Below, in pieces: positions 10,552 to 31,024 of a DNA stretch of 32,000 bases. Under the pieces are notes generated by a model. That model was not told the origin of the DNA. It saw only the letters and a list, made by a program, of their open reading frames with translations, and did not search any database. The number at the start of each line of letters is the position of its first letter. Position 1 is the stretch's first letter. A program made the position numbers and the translations under genes. Source of the stretch: Candidatus Saccharimonadota bacterium (GTDB taxonomy: Archaea; Micrarchaeota; Micrarchaeia; Micrarchaeales; Micrarchaeaceae); NCBI GenBank assembly GCA_021654395.1, contig AP024486.1:720001-752000 (forward strand), given 5' to 3'.

Positions 10552-13056
10552 CTATCTTATCTGAGAAGCGTTGTATAATGTAACGTTAATGAGCCTTATA
10601 GATGAGCTCTGATTTACTATCGGCTTTGTAAATCCTACTAGAGCGCAGTTCTGAAGTGTATCGTTATACGATCTAAATAGGGATAAGAATGTTCCTCCAT
10701 TAGTAGCTATTATTGTATGTCCTCTGCAGTTTATATCAACATTGCTTACATTATCTGCTGTAAAGCATGCTGCTCCGTATGTATATATATTATCTGAGTC
10801 TAATGTGTAGTACTGCGGTGCTTGGAACTGCTGGCATGTTAATGTATAGTTTGTATATGGCAGAGAAGCCATCCATATGCAGTTAAGCTTACTAGCTCCA
10901 TAGTCTACTCCAGGAAGATTGGAGTTTACTGCTGAGCTATTTCCATAGCATGCATAGCTATATGAGCTTGTAACTAAGAAGTTATTTCTGGTTATGTTGT
11001 TGTTAATAGAATTATTTACTATTATTCCATATACCACTCTGTCTCCTCTATTATTAATTACCTTGCTGCTGTATGTCTTATTAAGTATTATGCTATAGTT
11101 TACATATCTAAAGCTGTTATTATATATATCTGCGTTGCTTATTGAGTAGCCAAATAATCCGTATCTATCATTACTAAAAGAGCTGTTTGCAACAGTAAGA
11201 TTAGTTATACTATTTAAGTTAGCTCCATAGACTAAGCCGCTTAGATTATCATTGTATATACTTAATCTTCTTATATTGCTTGCGTTTACTCCATATCTGA
11301 AATCATTTATATTACAGCCATCTATAGTTATATTGCTCAATCCGTTCTTTATCTGTATAGCAGGCTTTCCAGATATCTTATAAGATGATATATATAGATT
11401 ATTACAGTTTAATCTTACATTACTTGCTTCTATATTTATACATGTGCTTCCATTATCGATCAAAGAGCCTAATAGACTATAATTAAATGGTCTTGTTATT
11501 GTTATGCAGCTTTTTAATGGGATAAAGTCTAAGTTTGGTGAGATATGCTGCTTACATGTTGCCCAGTAAGCATTTGTAAATCCGCATGAAACTTTATAAG
11601 CAAGATTGCTACTTATATTTGCAGAGTTGACTGATGCATATATATCAAATGCAGTATTATTCTCTAGATTGCTATTCTGAATGTACATATTATGCGTATT
11701 AATCGTCTCTAATCCATATGTATTATTAAAGGAGTTTAGATTGCTTATAAAGCTGCTGTTACTATTATTAAGCAGTAGAGCCACATAGTTGCTATAAGCA
11801 GTAATATTAGTAAGATGCAGGTATGAATGATTTGATAGTATACTTATATTATTTGAAGAGAGCTGTAGATTGTTACCATTAAACTGCGAGTCATTTAATA
11901 GATATAATCCATATCTACTGCTATCTATCTTACAGTTTTCTAAAGATATATTGCTTAAGCTATTGGCATATACTGCATAATATGCATTAGATATTGAGTT
12001 ATTGTTGCAGTCTATCTTTACATTACTTACTTTAATGTATATGCATGTTGCATGTGAGCTATTTACCTGCTCTGGTGTTAAGTAGTTAAGCATATCTATA
12101 TTAGAGCTTATGCTATACACTCCAGGACTTACTATGCTTCCGCAGCTGTCTATATTGCTCAATAGATGCAATGAAGTTATATTAAATAGCTTATTAACAC
12201 CTCCGCATGATATAAAGTTGCAGTAAGACTCGTTATAGCATAGGTTAAACTCAGCCTTATTGCTTGGTGCGTATCTGCTTACACCGCTGCAGTATAGCGA
12301 TTGATTTAATGAAGAGAATACATTATGCAGGAAGAGATTTCCTGTTGAGTTATCTATATAAGCAGATCTTATAAATGAGAATCTTATTGTATTATTTCTA
12401 AATACATTGTTATAAGATCTATTCATGAATAGACTTCCAAATGCAGATACTCCTTTAATTAATGTATTATATGATATATTTGAGCTGTTAACTCCATCTA
12501 GAGCTAGATTTGATATATAATTATTAGTAAGATTATCTCTATATATTTTAGAGCTCTTTACATTATTAAGATATATACCATATGAAAAGTTATCTATGAC
12601 ACAGTTACTTATTGTTATATTGCTCTCGTTGCTTGCGTATACTCCATATGTAAATGGAGGTACACCCTGAAATGGGCCTTTACCAGATATAGAGTTGTTA
12701 TCGCATGTTATATCTACATTAGGACTCTTTACTATTATACAGCTGCTTACTGCAGATACACCTATACTCTTATTTATAACATATCTACCAGAGCTAGTTA
12801 TATTAGAGCAGCTTGATAGATAAGTAAAGCCTAGTGGCTTACTAATTATAGTAGTTGTAGACTTAGTAATAGCATGCTTAGATGATATAGATAAAAGAAC
12901 TGCTATAATAGCAACTATAGCTATAGCAGCTATTATACCTATAAGCTTAGTTGGTCTCTCCTTTTGAGGTGGCGGGAGCTCATTCTGGAGCTCTTGATTT
13001 ACCTCTGGCCTCTCGAATCTTTCGTTACTATCGCTGCCTCCAGAGCTATTGTTCAT
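10552..13056 (-). CDS. membrane-anchored, heavily N-glycosylatable surface protein with parallel beta-helix (PbH1/CASH, NosD-like) repeats
   Basis: A charged N-terminal tail is followed by one TM segment (LIGIIAAIAIVAIIAVLLSI) and about 770 aa of Asn/Ser-rich sequence. The pattern N-x-x-I-x-N-x-x-x-G(I/V/L) recurs roughly every 22 residues. There are four Cys-framed module starts and more than 40 N-x-S/T sequons by my manual count. Confidence 0.7.
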   Translation of the reverse strand: MNNSSGGSDSNERFERPEVNQELQNELPPPQKERPTKLIGIIAAIAIVAIIAVLLSISSKHAITKSTTTIISKPLGFTYLSSCSNITSSGRYVINKSIGVSAVSSCIIVKSPNVDITCDNNSISGKGPFQGVPPFTYGVYASNESNITISNCVIDNFSYGIYLNNVKSSKIYRDNLTNNYISNLALDGVNSSNISYNTLIKGVSAFGSLFMNRSYNNVFRNNTIRFSFIRSAYIDNSTGNLFLHNVFSSLNQSLYCSGVSRYAPSNKAEFNLCYNESYCNFISCGGVNKLFNITSLHLLSNIDSCGSIVSPGVYSISSNIDMLNYLTPEQVNSSHATCIYIKVSNVKIDCNNNSISNAYYAVYANSLSNISLENCKIDSSRYGLYLLNDSQFNGNNLQLSSNNISILSNHSYLHLTNITAYSNYVALLLNNSNSSFISNLNSFNNTYGLETINTHNMYIQNSNLENNTAFDIYASVNSANISSNLAYKVSCGFTNAYWATCKQHISPNLDFIPLKSCITITRPFNYSLLGSLIDNGSTCINIEASNVRLNCNNLYISSYKISGKPAIQIKNGLSNITIDGCNINDFRYGVNASNIRRLSIYNDNLSGLVYGANLNSITNLTVANSSFSNDRYGLFGYSISNADIYNNSFRYVNYSIILNKTYSSKVINNRGDRVVYGIIVNNSINNNITRNNFLVTSSYSYACYGNSSAVNSNLPGVDYGASKLNCIWMASLPYTNYTLTCQQFQAPQYYTLDSDNIYTYGAACFTADNVSNVDINCRGHTIIATNGGTFLSLFRSYNDTLQNCALVGFTKPIVNQSSSIRLINVTLYNASQIR

Positions 13057-13080
13057 ATAAATCAATTACTATAGAAAGAT

Positions 13081-25003: not shown

Positions 25004-25369
25004 ATGTCTGATAGATATACATCAGTAAAAACATTAAAGGAGCTAGTACAAAGGTTCTGCGAAGAAAGAGATTGGGATCAGTTCAATAATGCTAAAGATC
25101 TTGCAATAAGTATAACAACTGAAGCCGCTGAGCTACTTGAGCTATTTAGATTTAAGACAGAAAAGGATATAGATGCAATGTTAAAGGATCCTGTAAAACG
25201 TGAACAGATAGGGGAAGAGCTTGCAGATATATTTTATTCTACATTAAGATTTGCTCAGCGATTCGGATTTGATCTTTCTGATGAATTAAGAAGCAAGCTA
25301 CGTAAGAACGCAAAAAAGTACCCTATCGAAAAAGCTAAGGGCTCTAATAAGAAGTATAATGAGGTGTAA
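25004..25369 (+). CDS. MazG-like all-alpha nucleoside-triphosphate pyrophosphohydrolase (DCTPP1/RS21-C6-like)
   Basis: FCEERDWDQFNNAKDLAISITTEAAELLELFRFK carries ExxExxE, GEELADIFYSTLRFAQRFGFDL carries EExxD, and the protein ends with KNAKKYP. This matches the DCTPP1-type pattern as I recall it. Confidence 0.8.
   Translation: MSDRYTSVKTLKELVQRFCEERDWDQFNNAKDLAISITTEAAELLELFRFKTEKDIDAMLKDPVKREQIGEELADIFYSTLRFAQRFGFDLSDELRSKLRKNAKKYPIEKAKGSNKKYNEV
25361..25366 (+). promoter_or_regulatory. Shine-Dalgarno-like GAGGTG for the HNH gene, embedded in the last codons of the MazG-like gene
   Basis: The sequence reads ...aatGAGGTGtaataATG. The MazG-like stop is at 25367-25369 and the next ATG at 25372, which suggests translational coupling. 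Confidence 0.5.
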
Positions 25370-25371
25370 TA

Positions 25372-26298
25372 ATGACTGAAATATATATAATACCTATTGG
25401 ATCTAAAGAACCTGTAGAAAATATGAATAGAACTTTAATCAATAAAGTAAGTAAGAAAGAGGTAGAGGAGCATCATGTATCCTTGGAATCGCTTGGTATA
25501 ATGGATGATTCAGTAAATATATGGGGACTTATACCAGGTAAGAAGAATAATAAAAAGTGGTCTAGATATAATAACGGCGACTATGTAATATTTGTTCCAA
25601 CAAGATATCCGTTAATAGTAGCACAGATAATAGGCAAGACAGACAGCAAAGATCTAGCAGAGTATCTATGGGGTAGGAATAAAAATGGAGCTACATGGGA
25701 GCATATATTCTTCCTTAAAATAATCTCTTTCTTAGAGAAAGAAAAAAGAGAATTTTTAAGAGAGCTTGGGTATAGAGACAAAGACGTATTAAAAGACAAC
25801 CGAAGAATAACTGAAAGATTTATTAAGGTTTATGGCAGCATAGATAACTTTCTATCAAAGAACTATGAAGACAAAGTTAGCGAAGAAGAGATATCTAATG
25901 ATCTTACTGAAAGCCTAATAGAAAGTATATACAGTAAAGAGGACAATAAAAAGGCTTTAGTAGAGCTAGAGAAGATAATAGAAGAGTCTGAAAAGAAGCC
26001 TGCAGATTATATAGAAGTTAGAGGAAGAAGATTTAAGCGCAAGCAACTATTTGTAGTATACGTAAGGATGAGAGATAATTATAGATGCAGGGCTTGCGGA
26101 TTTAACTTCATTAAGAAGGATGGGAAGCCTTATGTAGAGGTAGCGCATATAGTACCTTTATATAAAGGTGGTTTAGATCATCCTTCAAATATGGTTGCTT
26201 TATGTCCAAATTGTCATAAAAAGTTAGATAAAGGAGACGATAAAGCAAGACAAGAGGTCTTAGAAGCACTGAAGAATGCAGGAGCAATTAAAGTATAA
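25372..26298 (+). CDS. HNH endonuclease with an uncharacterised ~130-aa N-terminal domain and a charged helical linker
   Basis: The C-terminus reads YRCRACGFNFIKKDGKPYVEVAHIVPLYKGGLDHPSNMVALCPNCHKKLD, with CxxC...H-IxP...N...CxxCH intact. The N-terminal block is VNIWGLIPGKKNNKKWSRYNNGDYVIFVPTRYPLIVAQIIGK...ATWEHIFFLK. Confidence 0.8.
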   Translation: MTEIYIIPIGSKEPVENMNRTLINKVSKKEVEEHHVSLESLGIMDDSVNIWGLIPGKKNNKKWSRYNNGDYVIFVPTRYPLIVAQIIGKTDSKDLAEYLWGRNKNGATWEHIFFLKIISFLEKEKREFLRELGYRDKDVLKDNRRITERFIKVYGSIDNFLSKNYEDKVSEEEISNDLTESLIESIYSKEDNKKALVELEKIIEESEKKPADYIEVRGRRFKRKQLFVVYVRMRDNYRCRACGFNFIKKDGKPYVEVAHIVPLYKGGLDHPSNMVALCPNCHKKLDKGDDKARQEVLEALKNAGAIKV

Positions 26299-26417
26299 CA
26301 GTATATATTTTATACTTATAATGTAGATACTGTCCAAAATAAACAAATTTTTAAATCTTATTACTTCATATCCAGATAGATTTAAATATCAGAACAGCTT
26401 CAAATAAGATGATCGGT

Positions 26418-28109
26418 ATGACAACAGTCTCTAAATTAAATTCAGAGGAAAATAAGAGTTCTGATTATGCAACTTTTATACTTAAAGCGGTTCCTGATCT
26501 TAATTATGCGAATGTTAAAAGAGTTAAGATTGCATATCTAGAAGGAGGGTTAGAAGTATATCAGATTGATGATGGTAATCTAAGAAGTTACATGATGCGA
26601 GTGAATGGGGCAGATATTGAATTAACTAGAGACCAGTTCCTCAAGATATGGAATAATACAGCTGCAAAGATAGAGAAGACAGTTTATACGCTACGTACTG
26701 ATAATAATAATGAAGCTATAGAGATACACTCTTACGAAGGCAATTTAGAAGGACTAGTATTGGCTCTAGTGCCAATGAACACTAGAATTGATGAGATCTA
26801 TATAAAGGAGTTATCTAATAATATTATTAATGATGTTAGTAATAACCATACATATGATGATACTGAGCTTGCTAGAGCTGACATTCTAGGATCTTTTAGA
26901 TTAAGAAGAGGGCTTGATCCAAAGCTCAAAGGTATGGATTTTGAATCTGCTGTTAAAGAGATTAAAGAAGAAGTAAAGTTTCTAAATAAAAAATTAAGAA
27001 GACCTGTTGTTATCATAATCGCTGGTGCCTCCGGATCTGGTAAGACAACTTTAGCTTCTATGCTTTATCGCGAAATTCCTCGCTCTGTAGTAATATCAAC
27101 TGATAACTATTATATAGGAATAAAGCGTATGAAGGAGAAAGGTATAGATGACTTTGATCTTCCTGAAGCCATAGATAATGATCTACTTAAAGAGCACATA
27201 CGTGCATTAAGAGAACTTAAGTCAATAGAGATGCCAATCTATAGCTTCAAATCTGGTGAGAGAGAGGGTTATATTAATGTAGATCCGATTAAAGATAATG
27301 AACATATTGAGGCTATAATAGTTGAAGGAATATATTCACTTCAAAGTTTTTCAGAGCTTGGTGACATAAATATCTATATATTAATCACTCCACATGATGC
27401 TAGAATTAGAAGATATGGAAGAGACACAAATAGAACCTCCTGGCCACTGAATGATATAATAAGCTATGAGCTATATAAAGTAGCACCCAAGTTTCCATTA
27501 TACATTATGCCGCAAGAGGCAAGAGCTAATACAGTATTAGAAAACAGATATAATCCAAATAGAGAAGGAGTAGAGCTTATTAAGGGTATTGAAAAGCAGT
27601 TTAAGTTTAAACTATCAGAAGATGATTTAGCTAAGGTATATAGAGCCATTTCTGCAAGCTATGCAGAGATATTAGCAAATTCAAAGCAGATAGATATATA
27701 CCTAAAGATTCCTGAAGGCCATAAAGGAGAGCAGCTAAAGCTGAGAATAGAAGGTGATCAAATAATATTTGAATACAAGTTTGTAGCATATGATGGTACA
27801 AGAAGAAGACTAATGGTACCAATAACAGAGGTTGAGTTTGCACGGCTACTAAGCGAATACAAACAGATAAGTCACATAGTATCAAAGTATAGAACCCTAT
27901 ACTCGATTAATGGAATAAACTTCACTGTAGATAGAGATGTTAGAGTGATAACTTTTAACGATAACATGCAGAAGGAGTGTAGACTTGGAAGCTTTATTGA
28001 GATAAAGAACCCAAAGAGCGATGATGATATAAATTGGATAAAGAAGCTACTAGGTTTAGAGGGTAATCCTATTGAGGATTCATATATAGATCTAGCAGAT
28101 CGAATATAA
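26418..28109 (+). CDS. three-domain fusion: degenerate CYTH-like domain, uridine kinase/PRK-family P-loop kinase, and CyaB/ThTPase-like CYTH domain
   Basis: The N-terminal domain aligns by eye to NeuTTM-type CYTH (FILKAVPDL...KIEKTVYTLR...EIHSYEGNLEGLVLALV). The centre has Walker A IIAGASGSGKTT plus ISTDNYY, FDLPEAIDNDLL, MPIYSF, IIVEGIY and ARIRRYGRDTNR (Udk blocks). The C-terminus has IEKQFKFKL...QIDIYL...LKLRIEG...KYRTLYSINGINFTVDRD...LGSFIEIK...SYIDL (CyaB-like). Confidence 0.75.
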   Translation: MTTVSKLNSEENKSSDYATFILKAVPDLNYANVKRVKIAYLEGGLEVYQIDDGNLRSYMMRVNGADIELTRDQFLKIWNNTAAKIEKTVYTLRTDNNNEAIEIHSYEGNLEGLVLALVPMNTRIDEIYIKELSNNIINDVSNNHTYDDTELARADILGSFRLRRGLDPKLKGMDFESAVKEIKEEVKFLNKKLRRPVVIIIAGASGSGKTTLASMLYREIPRSVVISTDNYYIGIKRMKEKGIDDFDLPEAIDNDLLKEHIRALRELKSIEMPIYSFKSGEREGYINVDPIKDNEHIEAIIVEGIYSLQSFSELGDINIYILITPHDARIRRYGRDTNRTSWPLNDIISYELYKVAPKFPLYIMPQEARANTVLENRYNPNREGVELIKGIEKQFKFKLSEDDLAKVYRAISASYAEILANSKQIDIYLKIPEGHKGEQLKLRIEGDQIIFEYKFVAYDGTRRRLMVPITEVEFARLLSEYKQISHIVSKYRTLYSINGINFTVDRDVRVITFNDNMQKECRLGSFIEIKNPKSDDDINWIKKLLGLEGNPIEDSYIDLADRI

Positions 28110-28243: not shown

Positions 28244-28317
28244 CGCTCCCACCGGGATTTGAACCCGGATTACAGGCTCCGCAAGCCCGCGTTCTATCCA
28301 GGTTAGACTATGGGAGC
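28244..28317 (-). tRNA. tRNA-Arg (anticodon GCG)
   Basis: The reverse complement folds as GCTCCCA/TA/GTCT-AACCTGGATA-GAAC/G/CGGGC-TTGCGGA-GCCTG/TAAT/CCGGG-TTCAAAT-CCCGG/TGGGAGC/G. There is one C-A mismatch in the D-stem and one G-U pair in the anticodon stem. No CCA is encoded. Confidence 0.85.
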
Positions 28318-28424: not shown

Positions 28425-28787
28425 TTACTTTATAAATTTAGATAGCTCTTTCTTCATTGATTCTTTATCTAGCGCTATTCCATTAGATCTTGCATAGTCC
28501 TCTATGAGCCTTATAGAGTTAGTGCTGTATCTAGATGCAGCTGATATTATAGCTTTATCTAATGCATCTTTACTAAAATAAAAGGATCTTAATAAAGTCT
28601 TTATTACCTCTCCTCTATCCTTAATTGCAGCTGCTATTAGGCTATTATCTAGATGCTCTCTTATATCAATCTGCTTCTGGCTTAGATCTTCTAGTATCAG
28701 CTTAAGGATATCAGCATAGCCGTATCTAGCTAGCAGGATAATTATATCAGTATCTATATCTTCTATTCTATGGCTGCTATCCTGCAT
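28425..28787 (-). CDS. hypothetical helical-repeat protein (weakly ankyrin-like)
   Basis: Three approximately 33-aa units resemble degenerate ankyrin repeats: IIILLARYGYADILKLILED, SLIAAAIKDRGEVIKTLLRS and KAIISAASRYSTNSIRLIEDY. Confidence 0.4.
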   Translation of the reverse strand: MQDSSHRIEDIDTDIIILLARYGYADILKLILEDLSQKQIDIREHLDNSLIAAAIKDRGEVIKTLLRSFYFSKDALDKAIISAASRYSTNSIRLIEDYARSNGIALDKESMKKELSKFIK

Positions 28788-28992: not shown

Positions 28993-29697
28993 TTACTTTG
29001 AGCTACTTATCTCTTCTATTGTAGCCTCTGCTGAAGCATACAGTAGATTGTCTATGCTACTTAGATACTGATTAGACTGGTTACTCAAGCTATTTAGATT
29101 TATAACAACTAGAAAGTCTTTATAGACAAAAGCTAATACATAAGACAACCTACGCTGCTCTATAAAAGCAGAGTAGTGGCTAATATTACTATTATTTATA
29201 GAGAGATTAAGCTTACTTACACCTAGATTAGAGGAGTTAATGCTGCTAATAAGACCATAATATAAGCTATCTGCTACGCTGCTATTGCTATATCCAGTAA
29301 TAGCGATATCCATATAGTACTTGCTATTTCCTATATATCCTATATATGTATTTAATTGAGAGAAAGTAACATAATTTGCAAGCGTTGTAACTGAAGCAGT
29401 ATAAGTAGAGTTGAGAGAGAAGTTAGCTATGCTTGAAGGTGGTGTAAAGTTGTATACAATCTTATGAGAGCTTGGATTAGCTATATTGAATACTGTCGTT
29501 GTTATAGTTGTTGAGATAGTTGTTGATGTTGTTTTAATACTTGCTTTAGATGTTGTATTATGCAAACTTCTCTGCTGTATTGTTGTATATACTGTTGTTA
29601 AGTTATATGATTTACTAGGCTTATTTATAATTAGATATGCTGCAATTATAACAACTACTGCTACTATTACTGCTGCTACTATCTGTCCTTTCTCCAT
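28993..29697 (-). CDS. membrane-anchored extracellular protein with a Thr/Ser-rich stalk, function unknown
   Basis: An N-terminal TM segment (IVAAVIVAVVVIIAAYLII) is followed by TTSKASIKTTSTTISTTITTT and then a sequon-rich domain. Confidence 0.5.
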   Translation of the reverse strand: MEKGQIVAAVIVAVVVIIAAYLIINKPSKSYNLTTVYTTIQQRSLHNTTSKASIKTTSTTISTTITTTVFNIANPSSHKIVYNFTPPSSIANFSLNSTYTASVTTLANYVTFSQLNTYIGYIGNSKYYMDIAITGYSNSSVADSLYYGLISSINSSNLGVSKLNLSINNSNISHYSAFIEQRRLSYVLAFVYKDFLVVINLNSLSNQSNQYLSSIDNLLYASAEATIEEISSSK

Positions 29698-30924: not shown

Positions 30925-31024
30925 CGCCAGGGCTGGGATTTGAACCCAGAAGGCCCACGAGGGACCACACGCTCTCTAGTATGAAACTCCAGGCGTGCGC
31001 GTTACCGGATTCCGCCACCCTGGC
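30925..31024 (-). tRNA. tRNA-Ser (anticodon GGA), class II with long variable arm and a 13-nt intron at the canonical 37/38 position
   Basis: The reverse complement folds as GCCAGGG/TG/GCG-GAATCCGGTAA-CGC/G/CACGC-CTGGAG[TTTCATACTAGAG]A-GCGTG/variable arm TGGTCCCTCGTGGGCCT/CTGGG-TTCAAAT-CCCAG/CCCTGGC/G. The 3-bp D-stem, long variable arm and G73 fit Ser. Confidence 0.85.
30974..30986 (-). other. tRNA-Ser intron (13 nt)
   Basis: There are 20 nt between the anticodon-stem halves CACGC and GCGTG. Removing TTTCATACTAGAG leaves the loop CTGGAGA. Confidence 0.7.

Follow-up and report, generated by a model that had tools for sequence, protein, structure and literature searches.

The window analyzed here is a stretch of 32,000 nucleotides (nt) of contig AP024486.1 (positions 720,001 to 752,000, forward strand; GenBank assembly GCA_021654395.1), recorded under Candidatus Saccharimonadota bacterium and placed by GTDB in the archaeal family Micrarchaeaceae. 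The open reading frame (ORF) list of the window contains a gene at 26409..28109 (+; stop codon, 28107-28109) that encodes a protein of 566 amino acids (aa) with a CYTH-kinase-CYTH arrangement. This cytosolic archaeal protein is a member of a small uncharacterized prokaryotic family that combines a NeuTTM-type CYTH domain, a Udk-like kinase, and a SaTTM-type CYTH domain. The explanation favored here, with modest confidence, is a nucleoside-type kinase equipped with tunnel domains, of which the C-terminal one would act as a non-hydrolytic regulator and the N-terminal one would be a pseudo-enzyme domain. Because only the kinase has a complete catalytic set, it would be the working enzyme, probably moving phosphate from a nucleoside triphosphate to a nucleoside-like acceptor. 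The three-domain reading was first proposed in an original prediction made from the letters alone, and it is borne out by Pfam, by a hidden Markov model (HMM) of the NeuTTM family, and by a collinear bacterial homolog, designated L081.

Domain architecture of the protein

The central domain (residues 197-388; 26997..27572, +) was delimited by Pfam, NCBIfam, and structure matches and is predicted to be a PRK/Udk-type P-loop kinase with intact catalytic motifs. The Pfam PRK/Udk model PF00485 matches residues 201-378 with 64.8 bits (cut-off, 22; E value, 1e-17). The Walker A sequence GASGSGKTT occupies residues 206-214 (G206-T214), and further kinase motifs comprise Asp232 in S-T-D-N-Y-Y, the Glu of I-I-V-E306-G, and the lid residues R334, R335, R338, D339, and R342; the intact Walker A and Udk/PRK blocks noted in the original prediction are therefore present. 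Walker A, D232, E306, and the lid residues do not vary among the three aligned family members (the archaeal protein, L081, and a third protein, L083), and the counterpart of Asp232 in Arabidopsis TTM1 (AtTTM1) is the catalytic Asp98 (PMC9582702). The domain shares the P-loop, the catalytic Asp, the Walker B Glu, and the lid Arg with Udk and UCK1/2, with ~30 to 32% identity over the domain, and in a PDB sequence search the Udk/UCK structures match the kinase only (E values, 1e-15 to 1e-10). It differs from them in having Gly282, which is aligned to the base-recognizing His of the Thermus Udk sequence RAHTRS, a lid that reads R-T-S for R-G-R, two flanking tunnels, and a sub-equivalog score. The NCBIfam uridine kinase models NF004018 and TIGR00235 gave 111.5 and 105.5 bits against equivalog cut-offs of 180 and 220.3 bits, respectively, so the protein falls outside the set to which the same function as Udk is assigned. 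The kinase core is preceded by a linker and a predicted helix (residues 159-196; 26883..26996, +), which were aligned to AtTTM1 residues 27-50; the helix spans residues 178-196 in a low-confidence single-sequence AlphaFold2 model.

The N-terminal domain (residues ~17-158; 26457..26882, +) is predicted, from the NeuTTM HMM, hhalign, and BLASTP, to be a degenerate CYTH domain of the NeuTTM/CthTTM type, with homology to this subfamily from one end to the other. General-purpose profiles miss this domain, and they miss the C-terminal domain at threshold. No match to the N-terminal domain was found in Pfam (PF01928 included), NCBIfam, PADLOC, or PHROGs, and a PDB phmmer search returned nothing at E values up to 10. 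An exhaustive phmmer search with residues 1-190 against 1.84 billion representatives recovered solely the query itself and P0008, a 2559-aa protein of 62-aa repeats that was rejected as an artifact (24 to 27% gaps, with one weak match counted 25 times). A NeuTTM-family HMM, built from 120 collected members with a reference sequence identical to PDB 2fbl, scored the domain at 21.6 bits, compared with a maximum of 7.6 bits in 2000 shuffles and no score at all for the reversed sequence. When the 88 stop-to-stop ORFs of the window were searched with the same HMM, the CYTH-kinase-CYTH ORF scored 18.3 bits and the runner-up scored 4.8 bits. BLASTP of the domain against NeuTTM gave an E value of 3e-4, hhalign paired residues 22-123 with NeuTTM 7-116 (E value, 2.3e-5), and BLASTP against the intact N-terminal CYTH domain of L081 gave an E value of 1e-9. 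The alignment to NeuTTM-like proteins that had been made by eye is well supported by these scores. A Pfam check of the proposed architecture recovered PF00485 and, at scores close to the cut-off, the C-terminal CYTH domain, while PF01928 was blind to the N-terminal domain. AlphaFold2 supplied with the NeuTTM-family alignment modeled residues 12-165 with eight strands at a predicted local distance difference test (pLDDT) score of 87.8, and the top Foldseek matches of this model were the NeuTTM structures 3typ/2fbl (E value, 2e-7; TM score, 0.64 to 0.68), whereas no usable model of the full-length protein was obtained from its sequence alone.

The C-terminal domain (residues 389-566; 27573..28106, +) is a CYTH domain of the SaTTM/CyaB type according to Pfam, an HMM built from five structures, and the family profile. 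PF01928 matches residues 395-526; its score is 22.9 bits when the full sequence is searched, slightly below the cut-off of 23.2, and 26.5 bits with the isolated domain. As an internal control, the NeuTTM HMM gave 0.6 bits on this domain, and the five-structure SaTTM/CyaB-type HMM scored the C-terminal domain at 19.6 bits and the N-terminal domain at -0.2 bits. As each HMM matches just one of the two tunnels, they belong to different CYTH subfamilies and do not represent an internal duplication.

Residues retained and replaced in the two tunnels

The N-terminal CYTH domain is predicted to have lost the acidic residues that bind metal as well as most of the basic residues of its tunnel. Its register is set by F23, which both hhalign and BLASTP to L081 place on the conserved Phe, and strand beta-1 (S18-D19-Y20-A21-T22; 26460..26474, +) falls at the ExExK position, with the Glu, Glu, and Lys replaced by S18, Y20, and T22. 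The motif had originally been read as D-Y-A-T-F, which is one residue off the favored register S18-D-Y20-A-T22, but the absence of Glu and Lys stands in either case. The placement of LVLALV on the LxEVEF strand agrees with the HMM alignment and the column table, in which L116-VLALVPM-123 (26754..26777, +) lies at the L-V-E-V-E-F strand. There, the metal-binding E114 and E116 of NeuTTM (V-E-V-E-F of beta-8; published numbering, one above the P0009 numbering) are replaced by L120 and P122. R39 and R41 of the RxR motif correspond to Y51 and I53, turning RxR into YxI, and E63, R87, D101, and R141 correspond to D69, V92, H107, and T148, respectively; K52 is replaced by another basic residue, R64, and K85 is kept as K90. 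Except for K90 and R64, the ExExK, ExE, and RxR/K/R residues that line the tunnel are missing, and the earlier claim that the metal and triphosphate ligands are replaced is confirmed. Core positions are retained at F23, P29, Y43, F77, W81, T84, K90, G111, and L116. NeuTTM (NE1496, 2fbl/3typ) and the CthTTM-type proteins, of CYTH cluster 2 (Vogt et al. 2021), are stand-alone tripolyphosphatases, whereas the archaeal domain is part of a fusion and has replaced the NeuTTM ExExK, RxR, R87, D101, V-E-V-E-F ExE, and R141 alike. As 19 of the 23 family-invariant charged columns are changed (4 of 23 are identical), the archaeal N-terminal tunnel would be a pseudo-enzyme domain, serving as a structural or regulatory appendage or persisting as a remnant. 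The ligand-binding or sensor role put forward in the original prediction would be one possibility, beside a mere scaffold and an eroding domain.

One alignment would restore some of the catalytic residues. With 72 NeuTTM-family proteins, MAFFT places E14 on the Glu and K16 on the Lys of E-I-E-R-K, and in this register the N-terminal domain would still be a triphosphatase, with an ExxK formed from S12-E13-E14-N15-K16 and a six-residue insertion in beta-1. Such an activity is extremely improbable, because the F23 register of hhalign and BLASTP needs no insertion and because, in the model, residues 12-16 are disordered (pLDDT, <50) and beta-1 begins at Y20. The MAFFT register was rejected on these grounds, and even within it the first Glu, the beta-8 Glu pair, RxR, R87, and R141 would be absent.

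In the C-terminal domain, the Pfam and five-structure HMM registers agree in placing E395-K-Q397-F-K399 (27591..27605, +) on ExExK, with the second Glu changed to Gln, as the original prediction had it. D429-I-Y431 corresponds to DxY, K444-L-R446 to RxR, K457 to the lysine of T-Y-K, and K499-Y-R501 to KxR, and S558-Y559 of the plug helix are retained. E531-I-K533 (27999..28007, +) occupies the beta-8 ExE position, where the metal-1 Glu is retained and the metal-2 Glu is replaced by Lys; this strand was left unaligned by hmmalign, and L-G-S-F-I-E531-I-K533 was placed by eye on G-L-G-x-F-[IV]-E-I-E. The insertion that had been noticed before LGSFIEIK, DVRVITFNDNMQKECR (residues ~509-525; 27933..27983, +), lies in the loop preceding beta-8 and is not found in the five solved CYTH proteins, compared with which the archaeal domain has ~13 extra residues between VDR and LGSF. 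The alignment with SaTTM (Saci_0718, 7ns8) covers ExExK, DxY, xRxR, K, KxR, and the plug-helix S-Y, and the archaeal domain differs from SaTTM in Gln397, Lys533, the insertion, and its fusion to a kinase.

In CYTH proteins, the substrate-metal complex is bound by an invariant Glu, the first of the two on beta-8. The catalytic second metal is bound by the other beta-8 Glu and by both Glu residues of ExExK, and hydrolysis is crippled when these are mutated (Martinez et al. 2015, PMC4641920; Vogt et al. 2021, PMC8233210). Of the three metal-2 ligands needed for triphosphatase or thiamine triphosphatase activity, two are replaced in the archaeal domain (Q397 and K533), and for this reason the C-terminal tunnel is most likely a non-hydrolytic binder. 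It keeps the basic lining formed by K399, K444, R446, K457, K499, and R501 in addition to the metal-1 Glu E531 and, by analogy with Arabidopsis TTM1, may bind a ligand bearing tri-, pyro-, or polyphosphate and gate the kinase pocket. In class IV cyclases, beta-8 reads ExA, with Ala where the second Glu would be, and an HFxxxxExExK motif is present (PMC8233210). The archaeal domain reads E-L-I-K-G-I before E395, with no His-Phe, and E-I-K instead of E-x-A at beta-8, which sets it apart from the class IV adenylyl cyclase CyaB.

Bacterial relatives and the plant TTM1/TTM2 proteins

Scanning GTDB genomes and JGI metagenomes for exact peptides revealed no relatives of the archaeal protein, a word-indexed homolog search with the whole protein returned only kinase-level matches of other architectures, and tblastn against phage and plasmid collections returned ordinary Udk genes only. 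Relatives were found by an alignment-guided scan of JGI metagenomes using the motifs I-[SN]-[TM]-D-N-Y and [EQ]-[MV]-P-I-Y-[SD]-F-K, which returned many Udk genes and plant TTM1/2 transcripts together with three relatives from prokaryotes. Two of these, L081 and L082, are identical in sequence and encode a 577-aa protein that occurs in public records of Candidatus Jacksonbacteria and of a Parcubacteria bacterium, where it is annotated as "hypothetical" or "adenylate cyclase" (e.g., KKT53669.1). A single tblastn high-scoring segment pair joins it to residues 41-562 of the archaeal protein (29.5% identity; E value, 1e-42), and Pfam places its PRK domain between two CYTH stretches. The identity is 26% in the N-terminal domain, 16% in the linker, 38% in the kinase, and 32% in the C-terminal domain. 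The Jacksonbacteria/Parcubacteria proteins thus have the three domains in the same order, with the same kinase motifs, including P-I-Y-S-F-K, but they belong to bacteria of the candidate phyla radiation (CPR) and not to an archaeon, and their N-terminal CYTH domain is canonical. The latter scores 179.8 bits on the NeuTTM HMM (21.6 bits for the archaeal domain) and has every motif intact (K-E-I-E-K-K-F, V-R-L-R-K-K, T-V-K, E-K-T-R-Y, E-L-D-V-Y, and A-E-I-E-F). The tripartite architecture is therefore, as judged from these predicted domains, not unique to the archaeal gene, whereas the degenerate N-terminal tunnel is specific to the archaeal copy; the N-terminal tunnel would probably be a triphosphatase in the bacterial homologs and non-catalytic in the archaeon. 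No paper describing a two-tunnel CYTH-kinase-CYTH form was found, which agrees with the earlier statement that a second, degenerate CYTH domain at the N terminus is not known to have been described, but the form itself exists in bacteria with that domain intact.

The third relative, L083 (372 aa; Candidatus Paceibacterota), consists of the kinase and the C-terminal CYTH domain only. Among the relatives found, the tripartite form thus occurs in Jacksonbacteria/Parcubacteria and a two-domain form in Paceibacterota. The C-terminal CYTH domain of L081 reads E-V-Q-L-K at beta-1 and F-V-E-I-R at beta-8 and has a shorter insertion (VIKIENGIETN) at the same place as the archaeal one. That of L083 reads F-L-E-V-R at beta-8 but E-I-E-T-Q-M-K at beta-1 and shares only Ex[K/R]. 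Ex[K/R] is thus present in all three family members and ExQxK in two of the three. Because ExQxK, Ex[K/R], and the insertion are common to L081, and Ex[K/R] also to L083, these are shared traits of the family and not private decay of the archaeal protein. A profile of the three proteins searched against PDB matched AtTTM1 (E value, 1e-43), Udk/UCK (1e-40), NeuTTM (8e-23; positions 17-149), and SaTTM (4.5e-14; positions 380-549; 55 bits), so that one search brings out all three parts of the architecture.

The conservation of these replacements bears on an alternative in which the C-terminal CYTH domain is active in a non-hydrolase chemistry at metal site 1, such as phosphotransfer, polymerization, or cyclization, and forms a two-step pathway with the kinase. 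The occurrence of Ex[K/R] in three of three divergent members and of ExQxK in two looks selected, and the metal-1 Glu, DxY, and the basic residues are all retained. Changes at the second Glu are known to alter the chemistry, with Ala found in class IV cyclases (PMC8233210), and Vtc4p polymerizes phosphate with basic residues replacing the acidic patch (PMC4641920). Nevertheless, this alternative is considered unlikely: the His-Phe motif of class IV cyclases is absent before E395, the equivalent Glu mutations abolish hydrolysis in AtTTM3 and YgiF (PMC4641920), and AtTTM1, the sole solved kinase-CYTH protein, has an inactive tunnel (PMC9582702). In a more far-reaching version, to which little credence is given, the family would represent a new catalytic tunnel subtype, marked by ExQxK and Ex[K/R], that carries out non-hydrolytic phosphoryl transfer or condensation together with the kinase, with the archaeal N-terminal tunnel acting as an allosteric sensor. 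The signature of this subtype, a metal-1 site that is kept and an acidic patch that is partly basic, would be like that of the polyphosphate polymerase Vtc4p. For a long time, Sulfolobales were described as having no identified polyphosphate-forming enzyme (PMC8233210), and if the new subtype is real, a polyphosphate-type activity would be notable given this gap, although the gene is present in one known genome only.

The closest PDB match of the archaeal protein is 7z66 (AtTTM1), which is collinear with it over residues 177-561 (27-390 in TTM1; E value, 3e-19). The kinase-CYTH arrangement has been described as exclusive to plants or as confined to Viridiplantae and Amoebozoa (PMC9582702; PMC8233210). 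In AtTTM1, an inactive tunnel is docked on the kinase pocket, 16 angstroms from the kinase gamma-phosphate, its loops occupy the nucleoside site and displace the helical hairpin, and a role in kinase regulation has been proposed for the tunnel (Pesquera et al. 2022, PMC9582702). The archaeal protein resembles TTM1 and TTM2 in having a kinase followed by a CYTH domain with an incomplete acidic set, a helix before the kinase core, and Gly or Ser in place of the base-recognizing His of Udk. In contrast, TTM1 and TTM2 have no N-terminal CYTH domain, and the archaeal protein lacks their C-terminal coiled coil and tail or membrane anchor, ending 8 residues past the plug-helix S-Y. The archaeal protein retains E395 and E531, where TTM1 has L-K-S-S-K and Q-V-Q, and the aromatic residue of the W/YxRxR motif of TTM1/2 (CYTH cluster 7) is absent from the archaeal Q442-L-K-L-R446. 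The kinase scores 84 bits with AtTTM1, 75 bits with the Thermus Udk, and 97 to 99 bits with enterobacterial Udk proteins; the C-terminal CYTH domain alone matches the AtTTM1 CYTH domain with an E value of 0.13 and, in the family profile, is closer to SaTTM (55 bits) than the share of the score taken by TTM1 allows. Orthology with plant TTM1/2 was rejected on these domain-wise scores. In sequence, the archaeal protein has no particular closeness to the plant family, and the resemblance is treated as one of working principle and not of membership. The parallel with TTM1/TTM2 drawn in the original prediction accordingly holds for domain order and for the match to 7z66 but not for descent within the plant family.

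Five further JGI contigs (L112, L084, L103, L108, and L126) carry intron-free coding sequences of plant-type TTM1/TTM2 with a coiled coil and a tail anchor. They are eukaryotic transcripts and not prokaryotic relatives; L112 contains, unchanged, the 364 residues (27-390) of Arabidopsis TTM1 as reconstructed from the 7z66 alignment. On the contig of L083, the kinase-CYTH gene is preceded by a gene (15-1613, +) for a 532-aa protein of ~20 tandem units of 22 to 23 residues, with a consensus of roughly SAEGLKLPETINGNLDLxSLx, which looks leucine-rich-repeat-like.

Genomic context and significance

The gene has two candidate start codons. The original prediction began the gene at 26418, an ATG at Met4 that gives a 563-aa product and is the start of the gene caller's public protein P0001; the longer ORF from 26409 exists as well. 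The precomputed Pfam matches of P0001 are to kinase and P-loop families only. A TATA-like element, TTTAAATA (26381..26388, +), lies 21 to 30 nt upstream of the two candidate ATGs, within the 110-nt gap that separates the kinase gene from the upstream HNH gene, and T-runs lie downstream of the stop codon. The TATA-like element and the T-runs are possibly an archaeal promoter and terminator belonging to this gene alone. The gene region has a G+C content of 33%, the same as the rest of the window. A second copy of the locus was found in Logan run DRR248898, identical over 11.6 kb with 0 mismatches, and comes from the same strain.

The gene has housekeeping genes of archaeal type as neighbors in the window (succinyl-CoA ligase, M1 aminopeptidase, SecDF, NMD3, Asp/Asn-tRNA ligase, Sua5, RpoE/Rpb7, and Spt4). 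The succinyl-CoA ligase alpha subunit shares 68 to 73% identity with its counterparts in Acidianus, Saccharolobus, Stygiolobus, and Sulfolobaceae genomes, which marks the source as an archaeon related to Sulfolobales. Directly upstream of the kinase gene lie genes for a MazG-like nucleotide pyrophosphohydrolase (25004-25369, +; PF12643; E value, 2e-17) and a 308-aa HNH protein (25372-26298, +), the C-terminal half of which matches PADLOC models of type IV methyl-directed restriction (E value, 5e-15); these look like a two-gene unit. Two PHROG families of unknown function also cover most of the HNH protein, and its N-terminal 150 residues are without assignment. Downstream, a tRNA-Arg (GCG) gene (28244-28317, -) lies 135 nt from the kinase gene, followed by genes for a 120-aa protein with a weak ankyrin-repeat match (28425-28787, -; E value, 0.002) and a 234-aa protein with one N-terminal membrane helix, Ser/Thr/Asn-rich stretches, and no family match (28993-29697, -). 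The MazG, HNH, kinase, 234-aa, and 120-aa genes may form a lineage-specific block between Sua5 and the RpoE/Spt4 cluster. A second tRNA gene of 100 nt, evidently intron carrying, is located at 30925-31024 (-; Rfam, 47 bits) and was missed by ARAGORN. A 16-nt direct repeat considered as an attachment site was dismissed, as it is merely the T-arm shared by the two tRNAs, and a search for mobile-element signatures around tRNA-Arg found no integrase and no tRNA-derived direct repeat. Elsewhere in the window, a gene at 10552-13065 (-) encodes an 836-aa protein with right-handed beta-helix/NosD-like repeats (PF13229 and PF05048) and adjoins a group-1 glycosyltransferase gene; this protein is probably surface located or secreted and unrelated to the kinase-tunnel finding.

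The adjacency of the MazG-like, HNH, and kinase genes on the same strand, with 2 nt between the first two and 110 nt before the third, could suggest an anti-virus island in which the kinase protein acts on nucleotides during infection together with the pyrophosphatase and the nuclease, both of which have the family matches given above. Such a role is highly improbable. Apart from the P-loop, nothing in the kinase protein is matched meaningfully by PADLOC or PHROG, its gene appears to own a TATA-like element, and no relatives occur in phage or plasmid collections. The bacterial homologs are also found in unrelated housekeeping contexts, with SDR, NUDIX, rnpA, and clpP beside L081 and mraZ and rsmH beside L083.

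A different explanation is that the bacterial tripartite gene was acquired horizontally and that the archaeal copy is now decaying, with an eroding N-terminal domain and perhaps little or no function left in the protein. Such an origin would fit the lack of any relative in Sulfolobales or other archaea among 5.8 billion protein clusters, GTDB species genomes, and JGI metagenomes, nearest relatives that are CPR bacteria at 29.5% identity, divergence of the N-terminal domain across the board and beyond the active site, and a variable-looking stretch with tRNA-Arg, MazG-like, and HNH neighbors. This identity is, however, so low that a recent transfer is unlikely, and the 1.7-kb ORF is intact in a genome of 33% G+C, in which stop codons easily arise. 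All kinase motifs are intact, with the kinase 38% identical to its bacterial homolog, the G+C content of the gene equals that of its surroundings, and neither an integrase nor flanking repeats of tRNA sequence were found. Decay after acquisition is thus regarded as quite doubtful.

Several observations weigh against the favored reading of a kinase with a non-hydrolytic C-terminal regulator and an N-terminal pseudo-enzyme domain. Identity at the charged columns (4 of 23) does not differ significantly from that at the other invariant columns (13 of 40; Fisher P = 0.25). A selective loss of charged residues was therefore dropped, as this result means that the N-terminal domain has diverged throughout and not only at its active site, and general drift accounts for the divergence as well as a specific functional change does. 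The N-terminal model speaks for compatibility only and is circular as evidence of fold, since the family alignment supplies the fold, and the single-sequence AlphaFold2 model of the whole protein (pLDDT, 35) is unusable. The identity of the acceptor is put in question by the missing base-recognizing His (Gly282) and the sub-cut-off Udk score. As for Ex[K/R], its conservation is just as compatible with a changed chemistry as with a loss of chemistry. Finally, the gene is known from one genome, with no other copy beyond DRR248898, and no relative above ~36% identity was found among the 5.8 billion protein clusters.

The family indicates that prokaryotes have kinase-tunnel proteins of their own, including a two-tunnel form, and that the arrangement is not confined to plants. 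The archaeal and bacterial proteins constitute a natural pair with the same architecture, in which the N-terminal tunnel is catalytically complete in the bacterium and gutted in the archaeon, and this pair makes the role of non-catalytic tunnels for the attached kinase directly testable.

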